IMG/VR virus record: IMGVR_UViG_3300012359_000045
Span: 1 to 27,595 of that record
Origin: a virus
Lineage: Duplodnaviria > Caudoviricetes
Strand: one strand, 5' to 3'
DNA: 27,595 nucleotides
Made by a program: the position numbers and the translations under genes. Positions 710 to 19,142 of this stretch are shown piece by piece. The first letter of the stretch is position 1; the number at the start of each line of letters is the position of its first letter. The notes below the pieces were generated by a model. That model saw only the letters and a list, made by a program, of their open reading frames with translations. It was not told the origin of the DNA and searched no databases.

Positions 710-1093
710 AAGAAACCGGGGTCTTCTCTCGCGGTAACCCGGCGGAGCTGTGATCGTTGCGGCGCACGGGCCTCACATCAGGTGGACGTCGGAAGGGGCA
801 GCCTGTATTTCTGCGGGCACCATTTCCGTAAGCATTCCGGGCATATTTTTGCCCGGGGATATCCGGTCAAAGAATTGCAGAGAACATTATGCGCCGCCGC
901 AGGCGGACCATTGCCGAGCGCCGTATCAGGCTGTGGAACCAGCAGAACGGCCTCTGCGGGGTATGCCTCCTCCCCCTCGATTATGAGGAGACAGTGGTCG
1001 ACCATGACCACGCTCACTGCGACACGGATTCCCGCCAGGCTTGCGGGGATTGTGATCGCGGGGCGCTGCACTCCTCATGCAACCTGCTGCTAG
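689..1093 (+). CDS. Small Cys/His Zn-binding protein (CDRCGA...LYFCGHH); the protein-like part ends near 889
   Basis: CxxC and FCGHH motifs resemble a small actinobacterial Zn-finger family. SD-like CAGGTG lies upstream. Codons after the TTA at 887-889 overlap the EndoVII gene and look like shadow sequence. Confidence 0.6.
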   Translation: MGMFAWRKKPGSSLAVTRRSCDRCGARASHQVDVGRGSLYFCGHHFRKHSGHIFARGYPVKELQRTLCAAAGGPLPSAVSGCGTSRTASAGYASSPSIMRRQWSTMTTLTATRIPARLAGIVIAGRCTPHATCC

Positions 1094-1179
1094 GCCACGC
1101 TAACGATAATGCCGAGCTGCTGGAAAAGGCTATCCAGTATCTCCGGAGGAGGGCTGTCAGGCAATGTTCCTTGTCATAG
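889..1179 (+). CDS. Recombination endonuclease VII-family nuclease
   Basis: QNGLCGVC...VVDHDH...RGALHSSCNLLLG..DN...L.KAIQYL is the Endonuclease_7 signature. Confidence 0.88.
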   Translation: MRRRRRTIAERRIRLWNQQNGLCGVCLLPLDYEETVVDHDHAHCDTDSRQACGDCDRGALHSSCNLLLGHANDNAELLEKAIQYLRRRAVRQCSLS

Positions 1180-1289
1180 GGCTGATTATCCTGCTTTTCG
1201 GCGGGCTGGTCATCCTTCCCCACACGCTATGGCTGCTATTGGCTGTTGTCTTGACAGTCCTTATCATACTTGCCGTCACGCACCGTTAA
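1164..1289 (+). CDS. 41-aa two-helix membrane microprotein (absent from the ORF track)
   Basis: Translates as MFLVIGLIILLFGGLVILPHTLWLLLAVVLTVLIILAVTHR*. GGAGGAGG at 1145-1152. It fills the gap between EndoVII and the next gene. Confidence 0.7.
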   Translation: MFLVIGLIILLFGGLVILPHTLWLLLAVVLTVLIILAVTHR

Positions 1290-1302
1290 AAGGATATATG
1301 CC

Positions 1303-3483
1303 TTGAAGGCTTTTTTCAGGTTCTGCCTGCCTCTTCTCCTGGTTACCGGGCTGGTTTCCGGGGTTCTTGCTGTCTCCGCCGCACCCGGCCGGGCGGCGGT
1401 GCATAAGACCATGGTAATCCTTGAGGAGAACCATAACCGTACCCAGGCCGAGGCAGGAATGCCCTATCTTGTCTCCCTGGAAAACCAGTTTGGCAAGGCG
1501 ACGGGATACAATGCCATTACTCACCCGTCCCTGCCCAACTATCTTGCCATCTGGGGCGGGTCCACTTTCGGGGTAACCTCCGATTGCAGTGTCGGTTCCA
1601 GCGGATGCATCCCGAGTCCTCCGTCTGCCTGGGGCCAGGCGCTGGCCGCGGGGAGCACGGCTAAGGCATATCAGGAGTCAATGACCTCCAATTGCCAGAC
1701 TGGCGGGTCGGGCAGTTATGCCCCCCGTCACGGGCCGTGGCCTTACTGGACGGACAGCACGGAACGCGCAGGCTGCAATGCCAATGACGTTCCGATGGGA
1801 ACGACTGTCAGCGGCAATCTCCTGAATGACATAAATTCGGGCAGCCTGCCGGTTACCGGCGAAATGACCCCAAACCTGTGCAATGACGCCCATGATTCCT
1901 GCGGCGGGGATGCACTTGCCCACGCGGACGCCTGGCTCCAGGGATGGGTGCCAAAGCTCATGGCCGGGCCTGATTACCAGGCCGGTAATCTCACGATTAT
2001 AGTCACCTTCGACGAAGGTGACTCCAACCAGAACGTTCTTTTCGCGGTAATCGACCCGGGCCTGTCGGCAAAGGTCGTCACCGGATCCTTCAACCACTAT
2101 GCTCTCACCCGCTGGCTCGATGACAACGCGGGCGTCTCCGAGTTGCGCAATGCCGCTTCGGCCGGGGATCTCCGTGCGGCGTTCGGCCTGGGCGGCCCCG
2201 TGCAGCCTATGGCGCCGGCCGTGACCACAGGAGCAGCTTCCGGTGTGGGCCAGACCACGGCAACACTCAATGGCGCGGTGAACCCCGAAGGGCAGGCTAC
2301 CGCCTACCAGTTTGATTACGGCACCACCACGGCATATGGCACTTCCGTGCCCTCTCCGGCGGGTTCGGCGGGGAGCGGGACCACGGCGGTCAGTGAAAGC
2401 TCCAGCCTGGCAGGACTTACCGCAAGCACCACCTACCATTACCGGATTGAGGCTACTAATGCCACTGGCACGAGCTTCGGAGCGGACCAGTCGTTTACCA
2501 CCGCGGCGGTCCAGGGAAACTGCCCTGTTACCGGGACCACGTCCCAGGAACAGGACCTGGCATCGGCAATCTGCAATGTGCCTGCCGATGCCCAGTATGA
2601 CCTTCATGACTCGGCGGGCCACTCAATGGATACCATGAAGGTTGTCTCCACTTCAGGCGGGACGCCTGCCTTCGTGGCAGTTTATCATACTTGCGCAGTA
2701 TCGCCCTGCCAGGTTCTGCTAGGCGGGTCGAGCGATCTTCGCACGTGGACCTATGAAGGCCAGCTCACGGCCGGCGGCGGGTCCCAGCCAGCAATCAAGA
2801 GGCTGACAGACGGCTCCTACCTGATGCCTTACGAGGGTGTCTCCCCCAGCCATGTAACCGTGAACTGGTATCCTACCCTGGCGGACCTGCTGGCAGGCAA
2901 CAGCACCCGGAGTTACAGCCTGCCTAACACCCTGGGTACCTGCCAGGGAACCCCTAACATTTACAGCCCGGTCGGATACACTAACCCGGACAGCTCACTG
3001 TTCACCCTCGGTTTCCATGAATCGCAATGCGGGGATGACAGGGAGGCCACGACAAAGATCACCAATTTCGCGTCGTCTTGCGAGTCGGTGTCCGATTGGC
3101 TGAACACCGCGTTGCAAGGCCAGGGCGCGGCAGGCAAGCTGGGTGACCGTGATGCCGTCTGGCATGGCGCGCATCTTTTCGACGTTGTCGAAGGGAATAC
3201 CAGCACGACATACTCGCCCGCTAACTGGCGCTTGTATCTGTACGGGTTCACGGAGAACGGCGCGGTGCAGCTGCCTGTCCATACTGCTGGCGGGTCCACG
3301 GCGTTCGAGAACCCTACCGTATCGGCTCTCACCATCGGTGGCGTGAATAAGCTGGTGATCAGCCTGTTCATTCCCTCCGAAGGAGCGGCACCGGGCGAAG
3401 CCGGGGAGTTGCTGTACACGGTTCCTGATACCCTGGGTCCTGGTCAGAGTGCCCTTCCGGCGGTTCTGCAGAATGCCTGCTGA
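1303..3483 (+). CDS. Secreted phosphoesterase (SapM/AcpA-like, alkaline phosphatase superfamily) + FN3-like domain + uncharacterised C-terminal domain
   Basis: TTG start at 1303 after AAGGA, then a signal peptide (MKAFFRFCLPLLLVTGLVSGVLAVSAA). Motifs ILEENH, HPSLPNYLA, YAPRHGPW, PNLCNDAHD, IIVTFDEG and NHYAL (about 1402-2190). FN3-like TATLNGAVNP...YHYRIEATN (about 2212-2502). Confidence 0.85.
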   Translation: MKAFFRFCLPLLLVTGLVSGVLAVSAAPGRAAVHKTMVILEENHNRTQAEAGMPYLVSLENQFGKATGYNAITHPSLPNYLAIWGGSTFGVTSDCSVGSSGCIPSPPSAWGQALAAGSTAKAYQESMTSNCQTGGSGSYAPRHGPWPYWTDSTERAGCNANDVPMGTTVSGNLLNDINSGSLPVTGEMTPNLCNDAHDSCGGDALAHADAWLQGWVPKLMAGPDYQAGNLTIIVTFDEGDSNQNVLFAVIDPGLSAKVVTGSFNHYALTRWLDDNAGVSELRNAASAGDLRAAFGLGGPVQPMAPAVTTGAASGVGQTTATLNGAVNPEGQATAYQFDYGTTTAYGTSVPSPAGSAGSGTTAVSESSSLAGLTASTTYHYRIEATNATGTSFGADQSFTTAAVQGNCPVTGTTSQEQDLASAICNVPADAQYDLHDSAGHSMDTMKVVSTSGGTPAFVAVYHTCAVSPCQVLLGGSSDLRTWTYEGQLTAGGGSQPAIKRLTDGSYLMPYEGVSPSHVTVNWYPTLADLLAGNSTRSYSLPNTLGTCQGTPNIYSPVGYTNPDSSLFTLGFHESQCGDDREATTKITNFASSCESVSDWLNTALQGQGAAGKLGDRDAVWHGAHLFDVVEGNTSTTYSPANWRLYLYGFTENGAVQLPVHTAGGSTAFENPTVSALTIGGVNKLVISLFIPSEGAAPGEAGELLYTVPDTLGPGQSALPAVLQNAC

Positions 3484-3486
3484 TGA

Positions 3487-5136
3487 GTGATGCTGATCGG
3501 CAATCAGAGACCGCGGATAGAATATGTCCCGGGTTATTCACGGTCGCGCGGGGAAGACGCGATAGAGCTTTCCCGTAATGCTGGTCTTGACCTCGATGAC
3601 TGGCAGAAATATGTCATCGTCAACTCGCTCGGCACCCGGAACGATGGCAAATGGTCAGCTTTTGAGGTAAAACTCCTGGTACCCCGGCAGGCCGGCAAAG
3701 GATCGATCCTCGAATGCCGGGAACTAGCGGGACTGTTCCTTTTCCGCACGGACCGGCTTCTGCTCCACACAGCTCACGAGCAGCGGACATCCACGGAACA
3801 TTACCACAGGATCTGGTCGCTGATCCAGAATACCCCCGAGCTAGATCGGCGGGTAATGCGCAACAACTCGGCATACGGGCTTGAATCGATCTGGCTCAAA
3901 CCGGGACCGACCGTCATACTGGGCTCGGGTGGTCGTCAGGTTCTCCGTAACGAGTCTTCTCGTCTCCTCTTCATAGCCAGGTCGGGCAGCAGCGGCCGGG
4001 GTTTCACAGGCGATTTCATCGCCTACGACGAAGATATGAAACTGAAGGCTGCGCAGGTCGGGGCGTCTCTTCCCGCGCTCGGTGCCCGGCCTAACCCGCA
4101 GGTTTTCTATGCTGGTTCCGCGGGCGACGAGAATTCCGAGCAGGTCGGCCTGATAAGGCGGCGGGGCATAGAGGCAGCCGAGTCAGGGCATTCACCCGGA
4201 CGGTTGTTCTTTGCTGAGTGGTCTATCAACTGGCATACCGAGTATTGCAATCCGGATTGCACTGAGCATGACGATCCCGAAGATGAGCGTTCGGTAGCCA
4301 GGGCGAATCCGTCTTACAACGTCCGCCGCATGCCCTTCACGATAGCGGCCGAGCGGGACGCGCTGTCATCAGCGCAGTTCGAGCGGGAAATCCTCGGGGT
4401 GGGTAAATACCCGGTTCCGGGGGATGCGTGGATGGTCATCCCCAAAAAATGGTTCACGGCAACCACGGATGATACGGGGGAACCTCCCCGGGTGAGGTTC
4501 CCCGTATTTGCTATCGAGGTAGCGCAGGACAGGGGGTCGGCATCAATATCCGTGGCCGGCCTCAGGCCTGACGGCCGGATCGGCTTGCAGGTCACCGACC
4601 ACCGCGAGCATACCGGGTGGATCATGAGCAGGGCCGGGGAAATCCAGGATAAATGGTCGCCGGCAGCCTGGATCGTAGATAAGCGCGCGGCCACTAACAC
4701 GGTCCTTGTCGAGCTGGAGCGTGCGGGCCTTCCCGTTAAGACGATGACTGCCACAGATGTGGCCGCGGCCAGCGGCCAGCTGTATGACGCGATGCGGGAC
4801 GACATGGTGAGGCATTACGGGCAGCTGGCGCTCCGCACGGCCCTGGCAGCGGTTACCACGAGGAACCTGTCGGAATCGTGGGCCTTTGACCGGATTAATT
4901 CAGCAGCCGACCAGACTCCTCTCATGTCTGCCGCGTTCGCTTACTGGGGTTACATGAAATACGGTGCTGAGGAAGATTACGACGCCGCCGGTTCGGTGCA
5001 TTTTGACCTGGCGGAAATAAGGCGTCTTTACCGGCTAGGGATTTACGGTCCGGACGACCTCCGGCGTCTATACGAGGAAGACTTGATCAGTGATAAAGAC
5101 ATTGAAAAACTGGCTGGCGAAGGACTTTTCTCCTGA
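3487..5136 (+). CDS. terL: Terminase large subunit
   Basis: Walker A VPRQAGKGS, LLHTAH, SGRGFTGDFIAYDE (Walker B), ANPSY, FEREILG and a C-terminal nuclease region. Directly upstream of the portal. Confidence 0.93.
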   Translation: MMLIGNQRPRIEYVPGYSRSRGEDAIELSRNAGLDLDDWQKYVIVNSLGTRNDGKWSAFEVKLLVPRQAGKGSILECRELAGLFLFRTDRLLLHTAHEQRTSTEHYHRIWSLIQNTPELDRRVMRNNSAYGLESIWLKPGPTVILGSGGRQVLRNESSRLLFIARSGSSGRGFTGDFIAYDEDMKLKAAQVGASLPALGARPNPQVFYAGSAGDENSEQVGLIRRRGIEAAESGHSPGRLFFAEWSINWHTEYCNPDCTEHDDPEDERSVARANPSYNVRRMPFTIAAERDALSSAQFEREILGVGKYPVPGDAWMVIPKKWFTATTDDTGEPPRVRFPVFAIEVAQDRGSASISVAGLRPDGRIGLQVTDHREHTGWIMSRAGEIQDKWSPAAWIVDKRAATNTVLVELERAGLPVKTMTATDVAAASGQLYDAMRDDMVRHYGQLALRTALAAVTTRNLSESWAFDRINSAADQTPLMSAAFAYWGYMKYGAEEDYDAAGSVHFDLAEIRRLYRLGIYGPDDLRRLYEEDLISDKDIEKLAGEGLFS

Positions 5137-5284
5137 CGTCCCGTTGTCAGTCGTTGCTGTTTACCTCGTGATCCTCGCCGGTGTTGCTTTTATCTCCGCC
5201 GGCGTGTCGCTTTACTCGTTTCCCGCCGGGTTTATCGTGGCGGGTGTCCTGCTGATTCTCATCGCAGTGGATAGCAGGACGTAA
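5090..5284 (+). CDS. Small two-TM membrane protein preceding the portal
   Basis: Hydrophobic ...GVSLYSFPAGFIVAGVLLILIA. TAATG coupling to the portal. The start is uncertain. Confidence 0.7.
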   Translation: MIKTLKNWLAKDFSPDVPLSVVAVYLVILAGVAFISAGVSLYSFPAGFIVAGVLLILIAVDSRT

Positions 5285-6537
5285 TGAGCCTGATCCTGGG
5301 GAAACGCGAGGAACGGTATTTCGGCATCAATACCGTGTCGGATCTTATCCCCCGGCGCATGGTCGGGGGGCGGGTCCCGTATGTTTCCGCCGACCGCGCC
5401 ATGAAGCATTCCGCCTTCTGGGCGGGTATCCGGCTTCGTTCCGACCTGATTTCCACCCTGCCTTTCAAGGCTTACCGGAATGTTCAGCTGGAGGATGGCG
5501 TCTATCATAAGATAGACGCGACCCTGACTCCTTTCATGGCCCGCCCCGATTTCATGGAATGGCGGTCTTCGTCGCAGGCCGAGCTGGACCGTACCGGGAA
5601 CTCGATCGGCGTGATCCGCGGCGGCCCCGACGTTACCAGCACCCAGTTCTATATTGAGCTGTATCCCAGTTCGGCGTGCAGTATCTTCTACGAGCGCGGG
5701 AACAAGAAATACCGGATTGACAACCAGGTTTATGATCCGGCTGAAGTCTGGCACGAAAAGCAGTATACTATCCCGGGTCTTGATGTAGGCTTGTCGCCTG
5801 TAAGCGCCGCGGTTTTTTCGCTGGGTCTTTACGAGTCTATCGAGGAGTTCGCTTCGGACTGGTTTATCGGGGGCGCTACCCCCAGGGCGAGACTTAAGAA
5901 CACCGCCAAGAAGCTGAATTCTAAGGAAGCCACGACAGTTAAGGAATCGTGGCGTGCTTCCCGAGCCGCCGATGAGCCTTTCGTTCACGGGAACGACTGG
6001 GAGTACAGCCTTATTCAGGCAGAGCAGAATGCGTCTAACTGGATCGACGCGATGAAGCTGTCCCTTGAGGATGTGGCGAGGTTCGTGGGGGTCCCGGCGG
6101 ACCTTATCGACGCGGCTGCGGGCGGGCCGAATATTACTTATGCGAACGTGATTCAGCGGAACCTGCAATTCCTTATCATGCATATCGGCCCGGCTGTCCT
6201 GCGCAGGGAGAATAGCCTGAGCCAGCTGCTGCCGAAGCCACGGTTCGTGGAAATGGATTCTAAGGCCCTGCTGAGGATGGACCCGAAGACCCTGGCGGCT
6301 GTTATCCGTACCCAGATTGAGTCCCGTACTCTTTCCCCTAATGAGGCCCGAGAAATGGATAACCGTCCGCCATTCACTGATGATCAGATCCGGGAGTTCG
6401 ACGAGCTTGGCCTCAACCGCCGCGGGACGACTCCTGCTACCTCGCTGGCCCCGGTGCCGGTCAACCCTGCGGATATCAACGCCATCAGCGATCCGGCCGC
6501 ATCTACCGCTAATTCACAAGGAAACTTAGATGGCTAA
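5284..6537 (+). CDS. HK97-family portal protein
   Basis: SAFWAGIRLRSDLISTLP, GLSPV, DVARFVGVPADLI, TYANV, LSPNEAREMDNRPP. Confidence 0.93.
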   Translation: MSLILGKREERYFGINTVSDLIPRRMVGGRVPYVSADRAMKHSAFWAGIRLRSDLISTLPFKAYRNVQLEDGVYHKIDATLTPFMARPDFMEWRSSSQAELDRTGNSIGVIRGGPDVTSTQFYIELYPSSACSIFYERGNKKYRIDNQVYDPAEVWHEKQYTIPGLDVGLSPVSAAVFSLGLYESIEEFASDWFIGGATPRARLKNTAKKLNSKEATTVKESWRASRAADEPFVHGNDWEYSLIQAEQNASNWIDAMKLSLEDVARFVGVPADLIDAAAGGPNITYANVIQRNLQFLIMHIGPAVLRRENSLSQLLPKPRFVEMDSKALLRMDPKTLAAVIRTQIESRTLSPNEAREMDNRPPFTDDQIREFDELGLNRRGTTPATSLAPVPVNPADINAISDPAASTANSQGNLDG

Positions 6538-7957
6538 AGTAGACAATTCTGCCTGGAATGCCAGCGAAGCGTGGGCTAATGGTTCTGCCTCGGATGATCC
6601 TGAGGCTTTTTTCCGGGGGATCTGCGCTGGGGAGAAAACCACGGGGAAGCCGGATACCCAAGCTCACTGGGCGTTGCCTCATCACTATCATCCGGGTGAT
6701 CCGCCTAATGCCGCGGGCGTGCGTAACGGCCTGTCACGTATCGGCCAGACTCAGGGACTTGTCAGCAAGACCGCGGCACAGGCCCATCTGGATAACCACA
6801 TGGAAGACATCCAGGCGGCAGAAAAGGCTGCCAGGCCGGGAGGTATCCGGGCTAAGCGCGCCGCTGGGGGCTTTCCGGGGGACCGGGGGAGGATCCGTTC
6901 TTTCCCGGGCAGCAATATGCGGGCCGCCCTGGTAACCAAGGACGGGAAGTCCTTTTACGAGTTCGAAGGTTTCGCCGCCATCTTCGACAAGTCCTACCCG
7001 ATGTATGACATGTTCGGCAAATATGAAGAGACCATGGGCGGGAAGGCTCTTAACAAGTCCCTGGCAAATAACCCCGATGTTGCCTTCCTGACTAATCATC
7101 GTGGTATCACCATGGCCAGGACGACCAACGAAACCCTGGATATCCGGAAGGCAAAGAGGCCGGATGACGGGGAGACAGGACTCAAGGTTCATGCTTTCCT
7201 GAACGCTGACCGGCAGGATGTGCGGGACCTGGCCAGTGCCATACACGACGAGCTTGTCACTGAAATGTCCTTCGCGTTCCTGCTGAACGACGGCGAATGG
7301 AACGACGATTACGATGAGTTCACGATTACCGAGGCGGATATTAATCGCGGGGATGTATCGGCTGTCAATTACGGGGCGAACCCTTACACGTCTATTTCGG
7401 CCCGCGCGGAGGAAATGAACCGGTTTCTCCGGGAGGCACCTGCTTACGTTATCCGCGGCGGTCTCCAGACCGTTTCCGAACGGGCTGACAGCGACGAGTT
7501 TGCTTCGGCTTCACGAGCGCTTGCCAGGGAGGCTACCCGGCATTACCTGAATGCTGCCCGCAGGCTGGATTCTATTAAGTCCGGTATCGCCAGCGGGGCC
7601 GTAACCGGGAAGGGCAGCCGGGCACCGGGGGTTGCCGGGGAGGACCCGTCTTCGCTCGTAATCGGGCTGGATGCCGTTCTTGACCAGGCCAATGTCCTCG
7701 TAGCTTCCATGGATGAGGCTGCCTTTAAGGCCTTGCCTCCTGACGTGCAGCAGGCGATCGATCTCCTGATGGGCGCGGACACGATTGTTGACGAGCTTAT
7801 GGAAGCACTGGGAATTTACGATCCGGACGAGCCTGCTGAATTGACCCAGGACAGGCCTGCGGAGCATCGTAAGCTGCCGGGCGAGACCACCGCGGGAAAG
7901 ACCGGCAAGTCCCTGCGCATCTGGCAGATGCGCATGAAGGGACAAGAGTACCGATGA
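6530..7957 (+). CDS. HK97-family prohead protease with N- and C-terminal extensions
   Basis: FEGFAAIFD, FLTNH (catalytic His), EMSFAF (catalytic Ser), DVSAVNYGANPYT. Confidence 0.9.
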   Translation: MAKVDNSAWNASEAWANGSASDDPEAFFRGICAGEKTTGKPDTQAHWALPHHYHPGDPPNAAGVRNGLSRIGQTQGLVSKTAAQAHLDNHMEDIQAAEKAARPGGIRAKRAAGGFPGDRGRIRSFPGSNMRAALVTKDGKSFYEFEGFAAIFDKSYPMYDMFGKYEETMGGKALNKSLANNPDVAFLTNHRGITMARTTNETLDIRKAKRPDDGETGLKVHAFLNADRQDVRDLASAIHDELVTEMSFAFLLNDGEWNDDYDEFTITEADINRGDVSAVNYGANPYTSISARAEEMNRFLREAPAYVIRGGLQTVSERADSDEFASASRALAREATRHYLNAARRLDSIKSGIASGAVTGKGSRAPGVAGEDPSSLVIGLDAVLDQANVLVASMDEAAFKALPPDVQQAIDLLMGADTIVDELMEALGIYDPDEPAELTQDRPAEHRKLPGETTAGKTGKSLRIWQMRMKGQEYR

Positions 7958-8331
7958 GGCAGATGGTCCAGGTGGCACCCTATCCGGAAGAACTGGAGAC
8001 GGTTCTCAGCGGCCTGGATTTCAGGTTCCCCGGCTGGGCGTTCGAGTTGCGGGACATGCCTAAGCATGCGGGTGCCCGCGGGCTGACGCTGGTGATAACC
8101 CATGAAACCACGGACGCTTATAACCCCGGCAAGCCGTATACGGTTACGCACCCGATGAGTGTCCCCCCGGCATCCCATGATGAGCGTAACTGGGCTAGAT
8201 GGGTCCTGGAAATGATCCTGCTCGTGCAGCGGCACGAGGCAATGGAAGCATTCGTGGTGAACGGCCGGAGGCCGTTCCCTCCCGGCCATGGCGGCGGGCA
8301 CGACCCGTATTATCCTATCACGATTTATTAA
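7954..8331 (+). CDS. Hypothetical phage protein
   Basis: ATGA coupling to the protease. C-terminal RHEAMEAF...PF.PGHG..DPY. Confidence 0.7.
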   Translation: MRQMVQVAPYPEELETVLSGLDFRFPGWAFELRDMPKHAGARGLTLVITHETTDAYNPGKPYTVTHPMSVPPASHDERNWARWVLEMILLVQRHEAMEAFVVNGRRPFPPGHGGGHDPYYPITIY

Positions 8332-8337
8332 AGGCTT

Positions 8338-8460
8338 CCTGACGGCTATCAGACCGTCAGGTCTTCCGGCAATCATACCGGGTTGCAACAACCGCAAATA
8401 CGATAAGGGCCAGTCATAGTTAAATCGTCACTGCGGTGTCCATTAGCTGGTAACGACACC
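8338..8460 (+). promoter_or_regulatory. Structured 5' leader of the major capsid gene (three hairpins with CWRTCAKA loops)
   Basis: Loops CTATCAGA (8346-8353), CAATCATA (8370-8377) and CAGTCATA (8411-8418), each closed by a complementary stem. Confidence 0.6.
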
Positions 8461-8477
8461 AGGACAGGTGACATGTA

Positions 8478-9914: not shown

Positions 9915-9931
9915 TCTAGCTAATCCTTAAT

Positions 9932-9959: not shown

Positions 9960-9976
9960 TCCGGGAGGGGCAATTA

Positions 9977-10348: not shown

Positions 10349-10536
10349 AAATGGATCACGCACTTAAGGCTGAACGGGACCGTGCTGCTGCTTACGGCCT
10401 TATCAGGCTAGTCGAGCTAGCCGATGAAAAGCTGGCCGAAAGGGAGCAAGGTGAGATTAAGGACCGTCACGCCCCGGTTCGGCAGACCGCGTCTGCGGGC
10501 GCGGCGCGTACTCCAAGGAAGGCAGTTAAGGAATGA
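10345..10536 (+). CDS. Hypothetical protein
   Basis: ATGA overlaps at both ends, SD AGGAG. Confidence 0.65.
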   Translation: MKMDHALKAERDRAAAYGLIRLVELADEKLAEREQGEIKDRHAPVRQTASAGAARTPRKAVKE

Positions 10537-11015: not shown

Positions 11016-11021
11016 ATTACA

Positions 11022-11459
11022 GTGAGTAATGAGGTGTCACTCTCTGTATGTAGCATTTGTAATAAGTCTTTCATCCCTGAAACTACTTTCGGTGGCAGAT
11101 CATTTAAAACTTGCAGCGATTGCAGGGATAAACGAGCTAAATATATGCTTAAATGGAAAGGCGGTCGGGAAGGATATAATGATCATCAGCGTGATTATAA
11201 AAGATCCCGCCGCCAGCAAGTCCTAGATCATTATGGCAATAAGTGTGCCTGCTGCGGAGAATCCAGGTTTGAATTCCTGTCAATGGATCACATCAGCGGT
11301 GGCGGAACTGCTGATCGGAGAAAATCCGGGTTGCGCGGGAATGCAATTATAGGATGGATTATCCGGAATAATTACCCGGATACATTCCGCATTCTATGCC
11401 ATAACTGTAACCAGGCAATAGGCTTCTACGGGATTTGCCCGCATGAGACGGAGAAATAA
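11022..11459 (+). CDS. HNH-like (homing) endonuclease
   Basis: CSIC/CSDC Zn site, CACCGE...LSMDHISGGG...FRILCHNCN. Visibly more AT-rich than its neighbours. Confidence 0.82.
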   Translation: MSNEVSLSVCSICNKSFIPETTFGGRSFKTCSDCRDKRAKYMLKWKGGREGYNDHQRDYKRSRRQQVLDHYGNKCACCGESRFEFLSMDHISGGGTADRRKSGLRGNAIIGWIIRNNYPDTFRILCHNCNQAIGFYGICPHETEK

Positions 11460-11512
11460 TGACTAAACCTCTTGCCGTCGAATGACATCCATCGAGAGAT
11501 CCTGGGGAAGTC

Positions 11513-12097
11513 ATGAGCAATTATTCAGGGACCCCGGTAGAGCTATTTCACTCGTTTTACGGTGCTGCTACCACCAGCGTGCCATCGGCTAGCGCCGCCA
11601 CTATCACTGCGGGAACCCCGGAGATAGTGATACCTGCCGGGTACATGTCCGGGCTCGGAAAGAAATCCAGCTCGGCAAGGCTGGAGATCGGCGGGTACAT
11701 GACGGCAACGGCGACGGTGCCCACGTTCGCCTTCGGCCTTGCCTATACTGCTTTCGCGACCCCGCCGGCCTTTTCCGCCGCGACCCCGCTGGCTACCTTG
11801 TCCAATACGGTAACCCCTGCGGCGGCCACGGGCTCCTGGGATGCCGTGTTCAAGATCGGCCTCCGTACGCTAGGCCTGGGGAATACATCCACCGTATGGT
11901 GCAGCGGGAAGGTAGCAGCCAGCCCGGCGCTCACCACGTCGGTCTGGTGGCTCAACCCGCTGGGTTCCGGCGGGACTACTGTCACCACCTGGCAATCCGA
12001 TCAGGAGTATTACCTGTGGCCCTACCTTACCCTGGGAGCGGCTACCGCCCTTAATACGGTGACCCTTCAGTACGCCACGCTTTACCTGGAGAACTAG
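11513..12097 (+). CDS. Hypothetical beta-rich virion protein
   Basis: SD GGGGAAG. T/A/S/G-rich 194 aa protein in the structural operon. Confidence 0.65.
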   Translation: MSNYSGTPVELFHSFYGAATTSVPSASAATITAGTPEIVIPAGYMSGLGKKSSSARLEIGGYMTATATVPTFAFGLAYTAFATPPAFSAATPLATLSNTVTPAAATGSWDAVFKIGLRTLGLGNTSTVWCSGKVAASPALTTSVWWLNPLGSGGTTVTTWQSDQEYYLWPYLTLGAATALNTVTLQYATLYLEN

Positions 12098-12099
12098 CC

Positions 12100-12402
12100 A
12101 TGAGTGTCGGATATTCGGCGACAAAGACAGATTTCGATTCCCGCGCCGGGCAGCTTGCGACTGCGCTGCGCGCAGCGCTGTACAACTGCCAGCAGTTCAG
12201 CCAGCTCCTGCAATCGTCACAATGGACTGACTCTAATCTCATCGCCCTCGGTTATACTCAGGCGGAAGTCACTTTGCTCAAGGCAGCGTTTACTGATTTC
12301 ACCTCCCTGTACAATATCGCGCACGCCAACGGCACGCTAGTGGCCGTTAATGATTTCTTTTTCAACGGCAACAAGCTGATGGGCGTCGTAGGGGTCGGCT
12401 GA
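12100..12402 (+). CDS. Hypothetical helical protein
   Basis: SD GGAGA, 2 nt after the previous stop. Confidence 0.65.
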   Translation: MSVGYSATKTDFDSRAGQLATALRAALYNCQQFSQLLQSSQWTDSNLIALGYTQAEVTLLKAAFTDFTSLYNIAHANGTLVAVNDFFFNGNKLMGVVGVG

Positions 12403-12434
12403 CCTGCTCTTGTCTCTTGTAAGGCGGTAGTGTC

Positions 12435-15400
12435 GTGCCACTGTCAGTGACGGTTACGGCTACCGCCGGGGGGAGCACCGCTCCCGGGATACTCCTCAGG
12501 GTGAAGGTCCTGACAGGGGCGGCGTCCGCGCAGACCGGCGCGACGGGCATTAATTCGAGCAACACCCCGTTCACCCCGGATTTGTCCCTGTCCACCACTA
12601 CGACCGGCTCATATGTCTACGGTGCGCTGGTCAATGGCGCTCCGCTGACGAACGGGTCGGCTTTCACCCCGGCCTCCGGCAATACGCTGCTCGACAGTTA
12701 TGCTGACAGCGCCAATGCCGAGCAGTACGGTGCCACCAGGACTACCGCGGCGACAGGTACTCCCGGGCCGGTCACTGCCGGTGCTTCCGCGCCGTTGTCT
12801 ACGGGGAGCATCGCGTTCGCGGAGATCCTTCCCGGGGCGGGCGGAATTTCCGAAGACCCCTCATCACCCGCCACGGCAGTCAGCACTACCGGCACCGCCG
12901 TGAGCACGGCAAGCTTCACTCCGCCAGACGGCGCGCTGCTGGTAGCCATGGTGGCCTCCGATGGCGGATCGGGACAGACCACCATGTCCGTGTCCGGCGG
13001 CGGGGTTGCCTGGACGCCGATGGCGGAGGCGAACACCGCACCCAGCGACTATGCGGGCGTCTGGGTGGCCCGGCTGCCTTCTTCAGACCCCCACGACCCG
13101 GTTATAACCGCCGCTCAGGGCGGTTCTACCGCCGCGGGCCTGGCGATGCGTATTTTCGTCCTGACGCAGGCGGCGGCGACGCAGGACGGCGGGACCCAGA
13201 ATGCCTCGATCTCAAGCAGCACCGCATTCACGGGCTCCATCACTACCACGCAAACCGGAAGCCGGGTTTACGGGGCGGTATCCCACACCAACGTGTCCGA
13301 TGTAGCAGCGGCTAACAGCACTCTCCTTGATGATGTCGCTGATGCTACTAACAATGGTCGGTATGTTACTTTCAAGGCGACGACGCTAACCGGGACTCCC
13401 GGGGCGACCACGCTGGGTGTCACGGCCGCGTCGTCGACAACAGGCCCCCTGGCGCAGGCGGAAGTAAAAACCTCGGGAACACTGACAGAAGACGGTTCTG
13501 CCCCGGCACCGGTCAGCACAACATCTGCCACCTTTGTCTCCTGCGCAAACTTTACCCCGCCAGCCGGGTCGCTGCTCGTGGTGCTTGTCGCATCTGATGG
13601 TGGTACCGGAATCACTACGATGTCCGTGTCCGGCGGCGGGCTGAATTTCACGGAACTTGTCAAGAATAACCCTTCCGGTCTTGACTATGCTGGCGTATGG
13701 GTAGCCCAGGTGCCTGCCGGCGGCGGGATCGGACCACTGCCGAGCAGGCCTCCGAGGAAATACCGCCGTATCCAGCAGCCCATGCCCGCAGGCACTCCGG
13801 CAGCCGCGATATCCGCAGTACCAGCATGGACCGGTGCCCGCCAGCTTGCGCGGAGATTCGTCCGCAGCCGGGTATCGGCGGGCACGCCAGCTGCGACTCC
13901 TGCCGTTCCCCTGAGAGTAATAACTTCACGGAGACCCTTTACCCGCACTGGCCGCAGCTGGATAGCGGCGGGTAAGGTACCTGTGCCGATCAGCCAATCG
14001 GCGGGTTCCGCGGCAGCGGCTAATAACGCGACAGCCTCGTTTACCTCGCGGGGCGGCACGACCCTGGTCGCCATGGTGGGCAGGTCGGGGGGCCTGGCTA
14101 CCGGGGCGCTTACCGGAGTCATTGACTCGGCCGGTAATTCCTGGGGGCTGGTCACCCGCGGAGCTGTTTCGGGGCAGTCGAATACCCGCCTGGAGTGCTG
14201 GGCTGCTTTCAACGCCGCAGCGGTTACTTCCGTGACATTCCAGTCCGGTACCTCCCAGACGTATGTCTGGAATATAAGCGAGTGGCCGGGCTCTTACATA
14301 GCGGTTGACGCAGCCTCTCCTGATAATTCGGGCGCCGGGCCGGGCACCACGATTGATACCCCGTCAATCACGCCGTCAGGCCGGGCTGATGTCTTCCTGG
14401 CAGCCGCCCACTACAACGCGGTAACTTCCGGGACACTTAATACCGCTAACTGGGCGCCGCTGCTCAATTTCGATGATGCCGCCGGATCCGGCCGGGCAGC
14501 CTTCGTCATCCCGAACAGTACCGCACCGGAATCTGCGGAGTGGCTGCTGGGGTCCAGCGCCAGTGCCGGTGTCGTTACTGTCGCACTCGGGCCGTCCATC
14601 CGGACGCCGCCCGCGGCTACACGGACCGCCCGGCGTCCTTACGGCAGGACACGGCCGGCGGGGATAGCTCCGGGCATCGTCGTGACGGCCGCTGCGGCCC
14701 CCGTGCCGCCGGCCCCGTCCAGGACCGCCACCCGGCTCAGGCAGGCCTTCAGGGGCCAGCGTAGCGCGATACAGCCCGGCATCGTCGTCACGATCACGCC
14801 GCCTCCAGTAGTGCCCGCCCGGGTCAGAACTCTCCGGGTTCCTTTCACGAGGCCTAGGCCTGGCGGTATCCGTCAGGGCGTGGTTATCGCTGCTGCCCCG
14901 GTCACCCCCGTGGTTCCGGGCAGGATCAGGACCCCGCGGCGGCCCTTCACCCGCATTAAGAGCGGCCAGATCACTGCGGGCATTGTCGTCACGGTAACAG
15001 CGGTTATCGCGCCGGTAGTGCCTGATCGGATAAGGACTGTCAGGCGGCCGTTTACCCGCGTCAGGCCTGGCCTGATAACCACGGGTCTTGTTGTCACGGT
15101 TACAGCAGCACCTGTGCCTGTCGTCCCTGTTCCGGTGAAAACACTGCGGAGGCCTTTTACCCGGGTTAAATCTGCGGGTATCCGTCCTGGGGTTATCGTA
15201 AAGATCCCTGTCGCGCCGGCCAGTATAAGAACGCCGCGACAGCCTTTTACCAGGGTTAAGACTCGCGGTATAACCCCCGGCCGGGTAGTGGTAATAATTA
15301 TCCCGCCGATCGTGCCCGCTAGGGTACGGACCAGGTTCCGCCCGCATACGAAGGCAATATCCAGGAGTAAGATCACCGGGGTTCTTGATCCCGGGGCGGT

Positions 15401-15572
15401 AATTGTCGTCTTCTATGCTACCTCGGTAGCCGGGGGTACTGAGCGGAACCGGACGGATAGCGGAACGGGCACCTCTCCGGGATCAGCTCCGGGAACAGGT
15501 CACCTGGCAGATGACGCAATCGGCGGGGCGGGGAAACCGGATAGCACGGCCGGAGGCAGGCAGATTGGATGA
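12435..15572 (+). CDS. 1045-aa repeat protein (duplicated beta-sandwich modules + basic RRPFTR repeats), putative fibre or appendage
   Basis: Duplicated about 212-aa module (exact 21-nt repeat at 12984-13004 and 13620-13640). About 8 C-terminal repeats of 30-35 aa. Confidence 0.7.
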   Translation: MPLSVTVTATAGGSTAPGILLRVKVLTGAASAQTGATGINSSNTPFTPDLSLSTTTTGSYVYGALVNGAPLTNGSAFTPASGNTLLDSYADSANAEQYGATRTTAATGTPGPVTAGASAPLSTGSIAFAEILPGAGGISEDPSSPATAVSTTGTAVSTASFTPPDGALLVAMVASDGGSGQTTMSVSGGGVAWTPMAEANTAPSDYAGVWVARLPSSDPHDPVITAAQGGSTAAGLAMRIFVLTQAAATQDGGTQNASISSSTAFTGSITTTQTGSRVYGAVSHTNVSDVAAANSTLLDDVADATNNGRYVTFKATTLTGTPGATTLGVTAASSTTGPLAQAEVKTSGTLTEDGSAPAPVSTTSATFVSCANFTPPAGSLLVVLVASDGGTGITTMSVSGGGLNFTELVKNNPSGLDYAGVWVAQVPAGGGIGPLPSRPPRKYRRIQQPMPAGTPAAAISAVPAWTGARQLARRFVRSRVSAGTPAATPAVPLRVITSRRPFTRTGRSWIAAGKVPVPISQSAGSAAAANNATASFTSRGGTTLVAMVGRSGGLATGALTGVIDSAGNSWGLVTRGAVSGQSNTRLECWAAFNAAAVTSVTFQSGTSQTYVWNISEWPGSYIAVDAASPDNSGAGPGTTIDTPSITPSGRADVFLAAAHYNAVTSGTLNTANWAPLLNFDDAAGSGRAAFVIPNSTAPESAEWLLGSSASAGVVTVALGPSIRTPPAATRTARRPYGRTRPAGIAPGIVVTAAAAPVPPAPSRTATRLRQAFRGQRSAIQPGIVVTITPPPVVPARVRTLRVPFTRPRPGGIRQGVVIAAAPVTPVVPGRIRTPRRPFTRIKSGQITAGIVVTVTAVIAPVVPDRIRTVRRPFTRVRPGLITTGLVVTVTAAPVPVVPVPVKTLRRPFTRVKSAGIRPGVIVKIPVAPASIRTPRQPFTRVKTRGITPGRVVVIIIPPIVPARVRTRFRPHTKAISRSKITGVLDPGAVIVVFYATSVAGGTERNRTDSGTGTSPGSAPGTGHLADDAIGGAGKPDSTAGGRQIG

Positions 15573-15577
15573 CATAA

Positions 15578-16399
15578 ATGTATGAGCTTGGCCAGCCGTA
15601 CCGTTTCACTTTGAAGGTTTTTGATGTCAACGGCGCGCTTACTGATTCTAGCACGCAGTCGGTAACGGTTACGCTGCCCGATCTGACCACGTCGTCCCTT
15701 TCTGTTGTCCGCGACAGCCTGGGTGTCTACCACGCGGATTATACTCCCGCGGTCCAGGAAGGCCTGTATAAATTCCAGGGTGTTACTACCGGCCCCGTCA
15801 CCTCTAAAACTGATTATGTCCCGTTCAATGTTTTCCGGTCTATTGTCAGCATCGATGAGGCCAGGATTTTCGCCGGTTATACCGAGGGCGACCAGGATGC
15901 TCTTTTCCGCCAGGTCATGTCCGCGGCCACGGAGAAAGCCGAGTCGATTGTGGGCCATTGCGTGCAGCGGCGTTTCGTTAACGATCGCGTTCCGGGTTAC
16001 TCGGCGCAGGTTCTCCGGATGCCTCACGGCCCGCTGCCATCGGACACGGCTGTGGAATCGATCACCTCCGTTTACCCGGGCGGCCCTTCGTGGGTTACCG
16101 CGGACTTGATGCAGTACCCGGATAGTGCCACAGTGGAGCTGGTCAACTGGCTTCCGTTCTGGTACGGACCGTGGAAGGCCACTTACACAGCGGGGCGGGC
16201 GGTTATCTCAGAGAAAATCCAGCTTGCCGTCAAGGAATTCATCTACGATTTCTGGTCCAGTCACAGGCCTTACGGACTTGGTGGCCTGGAGCCTGGTCCT
16301 GAGGAGACTGCCCGCTGGGAAGCGGCGCTGGCACAGTACGAGATCCCGCCTCATGCCAGGGCGCTGCTGGAGTCAGAGGAGCAACCCGGGTTTGCCTGA
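15578..16399 (+). CDS. Head-tail connector/adaptor with an extra N-terminal beta-sandwich domain
   Basis: IVSIDEARIF...AATEKAESIVG...VESITSV...YTAGR...IQLAVKE is gp6-like. About 85 aa of N-terminal extension. Confidence 0.78.
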   Translation: MYELGQPYRFTLKVFDVNGALTDSSTQSVTVTLPDLTTSSLSVVRDSLGVYHADYTPAVQEGLYKFQGVTTGPVTSKTDYVPFNVFRSIVSIDEARIFAGYTEGDQDALFRQVMSAATEKAESIVGHCVQRRFVNDRVPGYSAQVLRMPHGPLPSDTAVESITSVYPGGPSWVTADLMQYPDSATVELVNWLPFWYGPWKATYTAGRAVISEKIQLAVKEFIYDFWSSHRPYGLGGLEPGPEETARWEAALAQYEIPPHARALLESEEQPGFA

Positions 16400-16406
16400 T
16401 CAGCCT

Positions 16407-16531
16407 TCTGACCTGCACAGACAATCTGGGGGCCTTAAATCCCGCGTTTCCGCAGGTCGCAGAGTTACGGTGCCGGGCCGCGTAACCACCCCAGGAGGCC
16501 CCGTTAACTTGGTAAACCCGCAGGTCAGAGG
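16407..16531. repeat. Intergenic nested inverted-repeat element carrying TGACCTGC motifs
   Basis: TCTGACCTGC 16407-16416 / GCAGGTCAGA 16520-16529; GGGGCCT 16429-16435 / AGGCCCC 16496-16502; GTTACG / CGTAAC within 16464-16486. Confidence 0.75.
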
Positions 16532-16555
16532 CATGGAAAACAGGGGGTAGGGCAC

Positions 16556-17017
16556 GTGAAAGTCACTTCCGCGGATGACGTGATCCTGGCGGTGACCGCC
16601 GCACTTGACGCGGCGGTGACTTATCCCGTTTTCGACGGCCCGCCGTCCGGGCGTCCTGTCCGGGGTACGGACCGTTATGTCGTCATCGGGACGGACACTC
16701 TCGATACCGGCGAGGATGCCGGGCCGGCTAACGCAGCTGACATGTCTCAGGCCTGGAAGGGCCTCGGCCAGAAGGCCCGGGACGAAGATCTGCACATTCA
16801 CTGTATTTCCGTGGGAAAGGGGTCGTCGGTTGCAGCGGCGAGAGGCTTCGCCATGGCGGCGCTCCAGAACACTTTCGACTATCTCGGCCAGCATCCGACT
16901 AATGAAACCTATAATGCGCTGGTTTCTGATATAAGTGATGTCCGTGTCAGGAATACCTCCGGGGGAGCCGTCGTGCACATATTGTTCACGATATCGGCTT
17001 CCGCCCGTCTTACATGA
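16556..17017 (+). CDS. Tail terminator/completion protein
   Basis: PVFDGPP...YVVIG motif. Lies between the connector and the tail tube. Confidence 0.65.
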   Translation: MKVTSADDVILAVTAALDAAVTYPVFDGPPSGRPVRGTDRYVVIGTDTLDTGEDAGPANAADMSQAWKGLGQKARDEDLHIHCISVGKGSSVAAARGFAMAALQNTFDYLGQHPTNETYNALVSDISDVRVRNTSGGAVVHILFTISASARLT

Positions 17018-17046
17018 ATCCTGCTGGCAGATAAAGGGAAGATAAA

Positions 17047-17241
17047 ATGGCACTAAAGCGTTATAACGGGCCGGAGGCGTCCGTGATTCTTTCCGTGGCC
17101 GGCCACGAAATCGGGACTTGCGCTCAGGGCGAGAGCATTGTCATTCCCGACGAGCTGGCGGACATGGTTGAGTGGCCCGGGTACTGGGAGGATTTTTCCG
17201 CCCCGGAAACTAAGGCCATAACTTCCGGAGGAGAGGAGTAA
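17047..17241 (+). CDS. Small hypothetical protein preceding the tail tube
   Basis: RYNGP...GESIVIPDELA...W, with SD GGGAAG. Confidence 0.65.
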   Translation: MALKRYNGPEASVILSVAGHEIGTCAQGESIVIPDELADMVEWPGYWEDFSAPETKAITSGGEE

Positions 17242-17244
17242 GAT

Positions 17245-18288
17245 ATGCCTACAGGTAGCGGGCTTGACGCCCAGCTGGGTACTAAGACAGAGACTACTGT
17301 CGGTACCCTGAGTACTCCTGTCACCCAGTTTTTCCCGTTCGACAGCTCCTCCCTGACTTACGACCCCGGTTACATCGAGGGCAGCGGGCTCCTTGCGGGA
17401 ATACGGTTCAAGGATGTATCTCAGGCGGCTATCGCACGTAAATCCGCCATGGGCAAGATCGAGATTCCTGTCATGGCCAAGGGTTTCGGATGGTGGCTGA
17501 AACATCTTATCGGGTCGACGGCTAACCCCGCTCTTATCGCGTCCACGGCGTACAAGCAAGTTCACGTCCCGGGGGGACTCCGCGGGCTGTCATTTACCGC
17601 GCAGGTCGGCAAGCCCGAGCCGGGCACTGGCACTGTCAAGCCCCTGACATATAACGGGTGCAAGATTGACAGCTGGGACCTGACTCTTGCTGATGATTCC
17701 CTGACTCTCCTTTCCCTTAATATCGACTCCTGGAATGAGGATTCCGCTACCGGGCTGGCGGCAGCCAGCTACCCGGCTGGCAACCAGGCCTTCAATTTCA
17801 GTCACGCTACGGTGTTCAAGACGGGCGGCACGCCCGCATTCGCCTCCGGCGAGGTTTCCATCGCTTCCGGTGTCACGGTGCCATCGGTAATCACTAAGCT
17901 GACAATCACCGGCAACGCCTCGCTGGAAGCCAGCCGGTACGGGCTCGGCAACGCGGGTGTCAAGAAAGAGCAGCTTGAGAATGATTTCTTCACTATCACC
18001 GGATCGTTTGAGGGTGAATACGATTCGGTGACCTGGGACAGCGCGTTCCGTAACGGCACTACCACTGCCATTCAATGCGATTCTTCGTTCGGGGACGCTG
18101 GCGGCGGCAACCCCTATCTTCTTAGCATCATTATCCCGTTTGCCAAGATCACCCGGGCACCCGCCGAAATATCCGGCCCGGGACTGGTGACGACCAGCGG
18201 TGAATTCAAGGCTTATTCCGACCCAGGACAGTCTACTATCGCCCCGTTGCAGATCAAGCTGGTAAGCACCGATTCGGTGGCATGGTGA
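17245..18288 (+). CDS. Major tail (tube) protein
   Basis: MPTGSGLDAQLGTKTETTVG, SFTAQVGKP, YNGCKIDSW. Strong SD GAGGAG. Confidence 0.85.
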   Translation: MPTGSGLDAQLGTKTETTVGTLSTPVTQFFPFDSSSLTYDPGYIEGSGLLAGIRFKDVSQAAIARKSAMGKIEIPVMAKGFGWWLKHLIGSTANPALIASTAYKQVHVPGGLRGLSFTAQVGKPEPGTGTVKPLTYNGCKIDSWDLTLADDSLTLLSLNIDSWNEDSATGLAAASYPAGNQAFNFSHATVFKTGGTPAFASGEVSIASGVTVPSVITKLTITGNASLEASRYGLGNAGVKKEQLENDFFTITGSFEGEYDSVTWDSAFRNGTTTAIQCDSSFGDAGGGNPYLLSIIIPFAKITRAPAEISGPGLVTTSGEFKAYSDPGQSTIAPLQIKLVSTDSVAW

Positions 18289-18291
18289 GCT

Positions 18292-18831
18292 ATGCCTGGC
18301 GAGCTTGCGAGGGTGAACCTCGATCATCGTTCAGAAGAGCTGCTTAAACGACTTGAGAAGGCCGACCTCATGCCGGAACTCAAGTACGCTATGCGGTCTT
18401 CCACCAACGGGATTGTCCCCCGTATCAAGAGAGCGATAAAAGGCCTCCCCTCGAACCAGGCCGAGCACAATAAAGGATCGCTCCGGGATGATGTGGCTAG
18501 GTCGGTGAAAAGGTCTGTCCGTGTCAGCCCCCGTGAGGTTTTCGTCGCGGTCCTGGTTAAGCCTCACGGGGGGAAATCAAACCTGGCCCGCGTGCTTGAA
18601 GGAGCCATTCCGTGGCGTCATCCTGTTTACGGCAGGGCGGGAACTGACGTAGGCCAGTCTCCGTCCCCTTATTTTTATGACACCATTGAAAAGCAGCGGC
18701 GGGAAGTCGAGAAGGAAATCCTGGGTGTTTTCCGGAGATTCGAGAGAGAGATCTTATGCCTGACATCAAAATCAAGGAATGCCCTACATGTCATATCGGG
18801 CACGAGTGGTATTTCGGGGGGGCTGACCTGA
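18292..18831 (+). CDS. HK97 gp10-like neck/tail completion protein (may end at the TTA at 18754-18756)
   Basis: Basic protein with GSLR..VA and WRHPVYG...Q...PYFYDTI. Overlaps the next gene by 76 nt if TTA is read as Leu. Confidence 0.6.
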   Translation: MPGELARVNLDHRSEELLKRLEKADLMPELKYAMRSSTNGIVPRIKRAIKGLPSNQAEHNKGSLRDDVARSVKRSVRVSPREVFVAVLVKPHGGKSNLARVLEGAIPWRHPVYGRAGTDVGQSPSPYFYDTIEKQRREVEKEILGVFRRFEREILCLTSKSRNALHVISGTSGISGGLT

Positions 18832-19142
18832 AGGAGCTTCGCGTGGTCAAACGGCTCACGGGAATGAACGGGCTGGATTTCTCCAACGCCTTTAAGGTCA
18901 TGGATCCCGACGCGCTGGCGGCGCTCATGGTCATACTTCATGCCCGGGACAAGATAAAGGTCAGCATCGACGACGTGAACATCGATTTCGACGACTTCGG
19001 CATGGAGATCACCCCCGAAGAGCAGGATCAGGTCGACAGGCTCGAAAAGGAAATGAAGGAAGCCGCTGACAGAGGCATGGCCCCAAAAGCATCCTTACCC
19101 CCGAATGGCCTCCTGAAAAGGGCGGGCTGGAAAACCAGGTGA
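18756..19142 (+). CDS. Tail assembly chaperone (G)
   Basis: Lies between tail genes and the tape measure. Acidic, with slippery C CCA AAA at 19082-19088. Confidence 0.8.
   Translation: MPDIKIKECPTCHIGHEWYFGGADLKELRVVKRLTGMNGLDFSNAFKVMDPDALAALMVILHARDKIKVSIDDVNIDFDDFGMEITPEEQDQVDRLEKEMKEAADRGMAPKASLPPNGLLKRAGWKTR

Follow-up and report, generated by a model that had tools for sequence, protein, structure and literature searches.

Does UUA encode leucine or end translation in a phage that places this codon only at the ends of its genes? The question is raised by a 27.6-kb, 60% GC fragment of a long-tailed phage (27,595 nucleotides; here called the window, meaning the whole stretch of DNA analyzed), which is all there is of IMG/VR record IMGVR_UViG_3300012359_000045 and in which portal, protease, capsid, tail tube, and lysin genes were recognized with Pfam. 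An earlier note on this DNA had listed four in-frame TTA codons, all at gene ends, and had offered two explanations: UUA means termination in the host code, or the phage uses a hungry UUA for control of coupling or frameshifting. The results presented here indicate that UUA very probably works as a terminator in this phage and that a leucine-to-stop reassignment is probably common to its family and to a soil clade of Streptosporangiaceae. Our preferred explanation, to which we give a probability of about two in three on sequence grounds, is that the phage uses the code of a host clade whose tRNA-Leu(UAA) has likely been lost and whose release factor 2 (RF2), carrying Ser-Lys-Tyr (SKY) in place of Ser-Pro-Phe (SPF), terminates at UUA.

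Results

Placement of TTA in the phage and its relatives

The census covered 30 called plus-strand genes with 8,602 codons, 678 of them for leucine. In-frame TTA was found four times (positions 887, 6526, 18754, and 19095), always at a gene end, while the two other frames of the window genes contained it 121 and 100 times. CTA (27), TTG (51), ATA (77), and GTA (95) were used freely in the same genes, and the minus-strand pentapeptide gene had no TTA in 310 codons. Only 3 of the 678 leucine codons lay within 3 nucleotides of a downstream start, and all three were TTA (hypergeometric probability, ∼8 × 10⁻⁸). This recount bore out the count in the earlier note, whose coordinates were also correct for the overlaps of 205 and 76 nucleotides, for two ordinary 1-nucleotide couplings, and for the 6-nucleotide gap between the chaperone slippery site and the fourth TTA (Table 1). 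A further in-frame TTA lies at 34 to 36, upstream of the start of the first gene and in the same frame. An assembly error behind the four sites was rejected, since contigs assembled from the soil-metagenome runs X1 and X2 had identical letters at all four and the X3 and X4 contigs, which differ elsewhere, agreed with the window at 6526. As X1 and X2 may be the source data of the window, their agreement rules out a transcription slip more than it gives independent support.

The ends of homologous proteins were compared in relatives drawn from IMG/VR. Homologs of the portal and gp10-like proteins stopped in the same column as the TTA of the window, and homologs of the DUF7455 protein stopped within three codons of it. 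At the junction of the gp10-like and chaperone genes, the window reads ATC TTA TG CCT where relative L083 reads CTT TAA TG CCT, and TGA occupied the TTA column in L081, L082, and the L395 group. The portal protein ends in QGN followed by TTA in the window, by TAG in L002 and L004, and by TAA in L005; in L081, the portal gene itself meets the protease gene at a TTATG junction. The DUF7455 homologs of L002 and L006 stop three codons ahead of the TTA column, and in G001 a different gene lies upstream of the endonuclease VII gene, with the junction again being TTATG. Read-through under translation table 11 would add 68 residues to the DUF7455 protein and 25 to the gp10-like protein of the window and 31 to the portal protein of L081, none of them conserved, and those of DUF7455 would lie over the endonuclease VII gene. 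The frame past the first TTA looked noncoding, with further TTAs in L005 and L266.

The same pattern was seen in a clade sample of 25 de-duplicated phage groups (50 to 61% GC; 81,103 homolog-aligned codons), in which TTA occurred 6 times, CTA 815 times, and TTG 760 times. Three of the six TTAs preceded a likely start, one belonged to a spurious frame, and one was the chaperone G site of the window; the only one that was clearly internal came from the distant member L384, whose codon usage is different. At NNA-TG junctions of homolog-supported gene pairs, TAA was present in 39 cases, TGA in 12, a sense codon followed by TGA in 12, and a run-on of at least two codons in 5. Four of these five run-ons were at TTA, even though TTA made up only 6 of 13,805 internal NNA codons (binomial probability, 2 × 10⁻¹³).

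These counts bear on the possibility that UUA is an ordinary leucine codon and that the four sites arose by stop loss, the added tails doing no harm, or occur by chance because start regions are rich in AT. The variable ends of chaperone G suit such an origin, and two TTA sites in G001 and two in host sequences have a canonical stop within two codons and fit either reading. Stop loss should have yielded TCA, CAA, GAA, AAA, CGA, and GGA at least as often as TTA, and this expectation is at odds with the run-ons observed, as are the unconserved tails and the homolog stops in the same column; we regard ordinary decoding as highly improbable.

The TTA in chaperone G is the least diagnostic of the four, because G ends vary among relatives: G stops at the slip site itself in L083 (TAA), one codon past it in L082 and L380 (TAG), and in other relatives as many as 19 codons past it. 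The CCCAAAA heptamer recurred at 10 of 14 further loci scanned as well as in L081 to L083, accompanied in the −1 frame by a conserved EWP..KGGL..QV peptide. The site thus shows both marks of the G/GT −1 frameshift of long-tailed phages, an XXXYYYZ heptamer at the end of G and a conserved −1 frame, here ahead of the tape measure gene, and it is ordinary except that the zero-frame stop is TTA. In L083 and L082, TTATG couplings were considered for the ends of G and T but rejected, since the stop of the L083 G gene is TAA and the TTAs of the T frame fall within the start of the tape measure gene. UUA could also signal frameshifting, bypassing, or translational coupling in a programmed manner that depends on growth phase, as proposed for terminase genes of Streptomyces phages. 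UUA-linked bypassing has been reported for phage Hau3 (PMC10732093), and one TTA of the window does lie 6 nucleotides past a slip site. The slip would work whatever the position of the downstream stop, however, and no TTA site is kept between relatives, which have TAA, TAG, or TGA there, so that a programmed signal is barely plausible.

About 45 to 49 kb of each of three control phages was examined. Streptomyces phage Jay2Jay (48% GC) had no TTA in 15,201 annotated codons, which included 242 CTA, and Streptomyces phage Wipeout, which encodes tRNA-Leu(UAA), had eight scattered TTAs, none at a junction. The third control was the standard-code Mycobacterium phage Cborch11. The Jay2Jay result led us to reject TTA depletion as proof of a stop. 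GC bias alone was rejected as the cause of TTA absence, since freshwater phages of 44 to 57% GC have internal TTA. Any phage of a host of the bldA type, in which UUA is a rare, bldA-dependent codon, avoids TTA, and therefore terminal placement, not avoidance, is the signal; of the argument in the earlier note, the placement of TTA remained informative, while the absence of internal TTA was to be expected. The use of UUA as leucine inside selected genes, which characterizes bldA-type systems, was not seen in the clade, where TTA is terminal, unlike in Wipeout. No tRNA-Leu(UAA) was found in the window. The complete relative G007 had 3 TTAs in 24,099 codons and 20 assigned tRNAs, including Leu-CAA and Leu-UAG but none for UUA. 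G007 (L253 to L257) measures 96 kb and carries RtcB, ThyX, and a glycosyltransferase gene next to a GH16 gene.

Altered RF2 and tRNA-Leu(UAA) in Streptosporangiaceae

A Ser204-substituted RF2 was sought first, because organellar UUA stops accompany a change at Ser204, which we take to be the serine of the SPF tripeptide. None was detected in actinomycetes, in which 63 of 64 loci read had SPF (G039, G033, G041, and G016 among them) and one, G024, had no motif. A metagenome scan with HRLVRI-x-PFD (x starting with G or C) gave 24 matches without a consistent actinobacterial lineage; as the pattern required PFD, it was blind to SKY. The RF2 of genome G723 contained HRMVRISKYD and had GGAD at the tip of helix 5 (a Val-to-Ala change), and RF1 of this genome was normal. 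A 100% identical RF2 record identified the family as Streptosporangiaceae, and SKY replaced SPF in 61 of the 201 genomes sampled from it. This number was obtained from 64 pattern matches after removal of G012 and G757 (Thr) and G676 (SKF), and it includes G680; 29 of the 30 SKY loci read were RF2, the exception being L457. In a sample of 401 genomes of the class, no true SKY RF2 was found, and a pattern match in G870 was rejected as not being RF2.

The earlier note had suggested looking for tRNA-Leu(UAA) and an altered RF1 or RF2 in the host. In a sequence-pattern search, checked by ARAGORN on 4 loci, tRNA-Leu(UAA) was matched in 4 of 61 SKY genomes versus 90 of 140 other family genomes; the remaining 57 SKY genomes gave no match. 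Many of the genomes are metagenome assembled. In a five-protein tree, 23 SKY genomes were separated from 7 non-SKY genomes (support, 0.94 and 1.0; midpoint root, no outgroup). The association between SKY and the tRNA (Fisher P = 2 × 10⁻¹⁵) is overstated by this P value, because a single evolutionary event underlies it. Three SKY genomes (G665, G769, and G729; loci L577 to L579) carry a tRNA-Leu(UAA) of a sequence type different from that of the family, and in G769 and G729 the tRNA was likely regained, because these genomes are nested inside the SKY group.

In 20 of the 201 family genomes, the tRNA-Leu(UAA) has C at position 33, where U is normally invariant (loop CC-TAA-AA); among these are G741, G814, G812, G779, G709, G682, G752, G705, G803, and G722 (loci L415 to L421, L423, L424, and L580). 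This C33 form may be a weakened tRNA on the way to being lost.

TTA in the bacterial genomes

The SKY sample amounted to 1.15 Mb; the non-SKY control comprised 0.45 Mb, came partly from other actinomycete families, and included G033. In the SKY sample, 24 of 34 first TTAs lay at the end of a coding segment, and in all 20 segment-end cases with a Pfam match, the best domain match ended before the TTA. The distance from domain end to TTA was 3 residues in QueA (followed by an 85-codon run-on), 6 in IspD, 6 in DUF3151, 10 in 6PGD, and 12 in HPr. All nine first TTAs of the control were inner, several of them within domains, including those of RF2 and FtsX (Fisher P = 2 × 10⁻⁴ versus SKY), although the control is small and the normal rate of internal TTA in Streptosporangiaceae is therefore loosely measured. 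At the edges of coding segments, TTA was 21-fold enriched in SKY DNA (27 edge, 14 inner), compared with 1.1- to 3.4-fold for eight control codons, and the non-SKY DNA had 0 edge and 10 inner TTAs.

Housekeeping genes were among those affected. The TTA of adk in G723, one of the genomes without a tRNA-Leu(UAA) match, coincides exactly with the stops of 27 homologs (offset 0). Single SKY members have TTA at the end of adk, of queA, or of ispD. No truly internal TTA was present in 148,073 codons of SKY core operons, but there were close to none in non-SKY genomes as well. Four seemingly internal TTAs in off-frame N-terminal extensions were discounted from the ribosomal-operon count, as was an apparent end in G706 that followed a frameshift. 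At L493:11763-14270 (minus strand) and L484:5775-8306, table 11 frames extend far upstream of the real gene through TTA; such frames inflate the length of open reading frames (ORFs) in SKY genomes. Overall, UUA is a minor stop, ending 4 of 30 window genes, ∼2.5% of the coding segments in the host sample, and ∼0.4% of genes in ribosomal operons.

Proposed relationship between the phage family and the SKY clade

The terminase of the window was nearest to those of phages of Actinobacteria. Named lysin homologs came from Streptomyces, Actinomadura, and Streptosporangiaceae, named homologs of the G007 RtcB came from Sphaerisporangium and Acidimicrobiia, and tail-tube homologs were detected in 6 of the 201 Streptosporangiaceae genomes. 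The SKY clade of this family is the likely host of the phage family. A search of 401 Actinomycetota genomes gave no portal homolog at E = 1 × 10⁻⁶⁰, and six short matches in SKY genomes proved on checking to lie outside CRISPR arrays.

Two other candidates were dismissed: the family of G519, found through a lysin match, had SPF in all 14 RF2 sequences, and a group with a GPF-type RF2 had TTA inside secA and prfB. The latter group (L300, L307, L311, L316, and L319) has GPF and HTAF in RF2 instead of SPF and HTSF, uses TTA as leucine, and ends prfB and secA in TAG.

It could be argued that the phage imposes its code on a standard-code host, through its own release or rescue factor or by destruction of the host tRNA-Leu(UAA). 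A factor gene could lie outside a 27.6-kb fragment, G007 has RtcB and many tRNAs, TTA ends are less frequent in the candidate hosts than in the phages, and prophage relatives reside in non-SKY genomes. Against this, no RF-1 domain was detected in five partial related records or in 125 nonstructural proteins of G007 and G001 (not their full set), and the chromosomes of the likely host family show the TTA pattern themselves. An imposed code is accordingly rated as very unlikely.

The chief rival to the preferred reading is that termination machinery without any change releases the protein at a hungry codon. UUA would be unassigned or hungry, either as a bldA-like codon or after loss of its tRNA, stalled ribosomes would be freed by an ordinary RF2 acting on a near-cognate codon, by a rescue factor, or by drop-off, TTA would be tolerated only after a complete protein, and SKY would be unrelated or secondary. 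The absence of TTA from Jay2Jay demonstrates that avoidance requires no code change, TTA is only a minor terminator, some internal TTAs persist in SKY genomes, and pausing at a UUA near an ORF end has been reported for the upstream ORF of adpA (PMC10732093). The Streptomyces phages, on the other hand, had no terminal TTA, a +1 slip would reach a stop at only one of the four window sites (TTAG), a stall ending the essential portal gene should invite tagging by tmRNA, and it is precisely the codon-reading parts of RF2, the tripeptide and the tip of helix 5, that are altered in the candidate hosts. Release at a hungry codon is therefore an unlikely explanation, and the second alternative of the earlier note, a hungry UUA for coupling or frameshift control, explains less than termination does.

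Other features of the window

The features discussed above are listed in Table 1. The gp10-like and chaperone G genes had no Pfam match, and their names rest on gene order and on the earlier note. A 22-nucleotide direct repeat with one mismatch (428 to 449 and 605 to 626), spotted by eye in noncoding DNA ahead of the DUF7455 gene, may be an operator or part of a promoter. Between the endonuclease VII and terminase genes, a long gene that encodes a phosphoesterase domain (1270 to 3483) is inserted. About 100 N-terminal residues of the protease (6530 to 6845) are absent from most relatives, in which alignments begin at residues 95 to 106, and a 1,045-residue protein without a Pfam match (12435 to 15572) has a repeated, Arg/Pro-rich C-terminal third.

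Table 1. Coordinates of genes, junctions, and signals in the window
Feature	Position	Strand	Basis or remark
DUF7455 gene	689-889	+	PF24254 at residues 19-61; 66 residues if TTA 887-889 stops, 134 under table 11
TTATG stop/start junction, DUF7455/endonuclease VII	887-891	+	Sequence
Endonuclease VII gene	889-1179	+	PF02945
TAATG, ordinary 1-nucleotide coupling for comparison	5282-5286	+	Sequence
Portal gene	5284-6528	+	PF04860; 414 residues ending QGN, then TTA
Prohead protease gene	6530-7957	+	PF04586; start 1 nucleotide past portal TTA
gp10-like tail gene	18292-18756	+	154 residues if TTA 18754-18756 stops, 179 under table 11
TTATG stop/start junction, gp10-like/tail chaperone	18754-18758	+	Sequence
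Tail assembly chaperone G	18756-19097	+	113 residues if TTA 19095-19097 stops
CCCAAAA −1 slippery heptamer, predicted GT protein	19082-19088	+	Heptamer shared with relatives
T reading frame (−1), C-terminal part of GT	19089-19303	+	−1 frame of relatives
TGATG, ordinary 1-nucleotide coupling for comparison	24692-24696	+	Sequence
Pentapeptide-repeat/DUF5758 gene, after lysin	26644-27573	−	Pfam

Discussion

The first alternative of the earlier note, a host code in which UUA means termination, is supported by the homolog stops, by the SKY form of RF2, by the lack of a tRNA-Leu(UAA) match in most SKY genomes, and by the housekeeping genes that end in TTA. An order of events can be proposed. GC pressure would first make UUA nearly unused, and the single tRNA-Leu(UAA) would then weaken, as the C33 form in some relatives may illustrate, or be lost. 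RF2 would subsequently change in two codon-reading regions and gain release at UUA. These two regions read the first two bases of a stop codon in RF2-ribosome structures, and the altered RF2 is the likely reader of UUA. At that point, a TAA or TGA could become TTA by drift at no cost, and this would happen more frequently in the phages, which are richer in AT and have many 1-nucleotide stop/start couplings. Taken as a whole, we narrowly favor the view that a soil Streptosporangiaceae clade has a new four-stop code (UAA, UAG, UGA, and UUA), which would have arisen through loss of tRNA-Leu(UAA) and the change of SPF to SKY in RF2, and that the phage family infects this clade and uses its code.

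Several observations weigh against this reading. With respect to the phages, G007 has almost no terminal TTA, and in Cborch11 one of six TTAs lies near a junction, 4 nucleotides before a start. The link to the host is challenged by the six prophage (tail-tube) matches, all of which sit in non-SKY genomes, and by the 61 SKY genomes, in which searches for close DNA matches, for CRISPR spacers, and for terminase homologs gave no usable match. Among the first TTAs of the SKY sample, 10 of 34 were scored as inner, and 5 of these look truly internal on reading (in an NB-ARC/TPR, a HerA-like, an AbiEi-family, and two unknown genes), one at a seemingly conserved leucine. Real TTA ends numbered only 3 among ∼857 SKY gene ends in ribosomal operons, and in two of these three a TAG or TGA came directly next; the non-SKY relatives, too, had close to no internal TTA in these operons. 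Four SKY genomes possess tRNA-Leu(UAA), and 50 of 140 non-SKY genomes likewise gave no match for it. Since all 23 SKY genomes in the tree group together, SKY and the loss of the tRNA count as one event and not as 57. Lastly, the serine tied to UUA reading in organelles is retained in SKY; no replacement by Ala, Gly, or Cys was seen in the RF2 of these genomes.

In the literature, UUA as a stop was found in mitochondria and plastids but not in any bacterium or phage, with most subscription papers lying outside the search. The mitochondrial code of labyrinthuleans is NCBI table 23. UUA is a stop in these mitochondria (Thraustochytrium), and UUA and UCA are stops in peDinoflagellate plastids (PMC12574857). 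The proposed organellar reader is a factor of the RF2 type whose codon-binding region is altered, Ser204 being replaced by Ala, Gly, or Cys, and the plastid case was called the first sense-to-stop change outside mitochondria in October 2025 (PMC12574857). The phage clade resembles these organelles in that UUA is absent from gene interiors, the phage and SKY genomes both have UUA where homologs stop, and an RF2-type reader is proposed here as well. The phage and SKY genomes differ from the organelles in being a phage and free-living soil bacteria, in keeping the serine while Pro-Phe becomes Lys-Tyr, and in using UUA as a minor stop, compared with up to half of the genes in peDinoflagellate plastids (PMC12574857). 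In mitochondria of Marsupiomonadales and Pseudoscourfieldia, UUA and UUG are stops, no cognate tRNA gene is present, and mtRF1a is altered (PMC12574857). The proposed leucine-to-stop change and the lack of a cognate tRNA match in most SKY genomes recall that system, whereas RF1 looks normal here and TTG is a common leucine codon.

The bldA system of Streptomyces and its phages offers a different parallel, since UUA is the rarest codon there too, low-GC phages avoid it, and ribosomes pause at it near an ORF end (PMC10732093). In Streptomyces, however, UUA is decoded as leucine inside genes, and neither Streptomyces phage control had a TTA at a junction. Stop-to-sense recoding in phages, with TAG read as Gln and TGA as Trp, was reportedly described by Borges and colleagues in 2022. 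As in such phages, gene ends are miscalled under table 11, but here a sense codon would become a stop. Codetta-type screens of bacterial codes cannot detect a sense-to-stop change (PMC9825746).

If the reassignment is real, it would be a sense-to-stop change in free-living bacteria for which a release-factor cause can be named. Stop-codon recognition would become open to direct tests with a natural RF2 that has a fourth specificity and a mutation unlike that of organelles. Gene ends would be misannotated in a common soil lineage and in its phages, and a host that stops at UUA may gain protection against phages and other incoming genes in which UUA means leucine. The Streptosporangiaceae seem to hold the steps of such a change side by side, with a normal tRNA, a C33 tRNA, loss of the tRNA together with SKY, and a tRNA regained.

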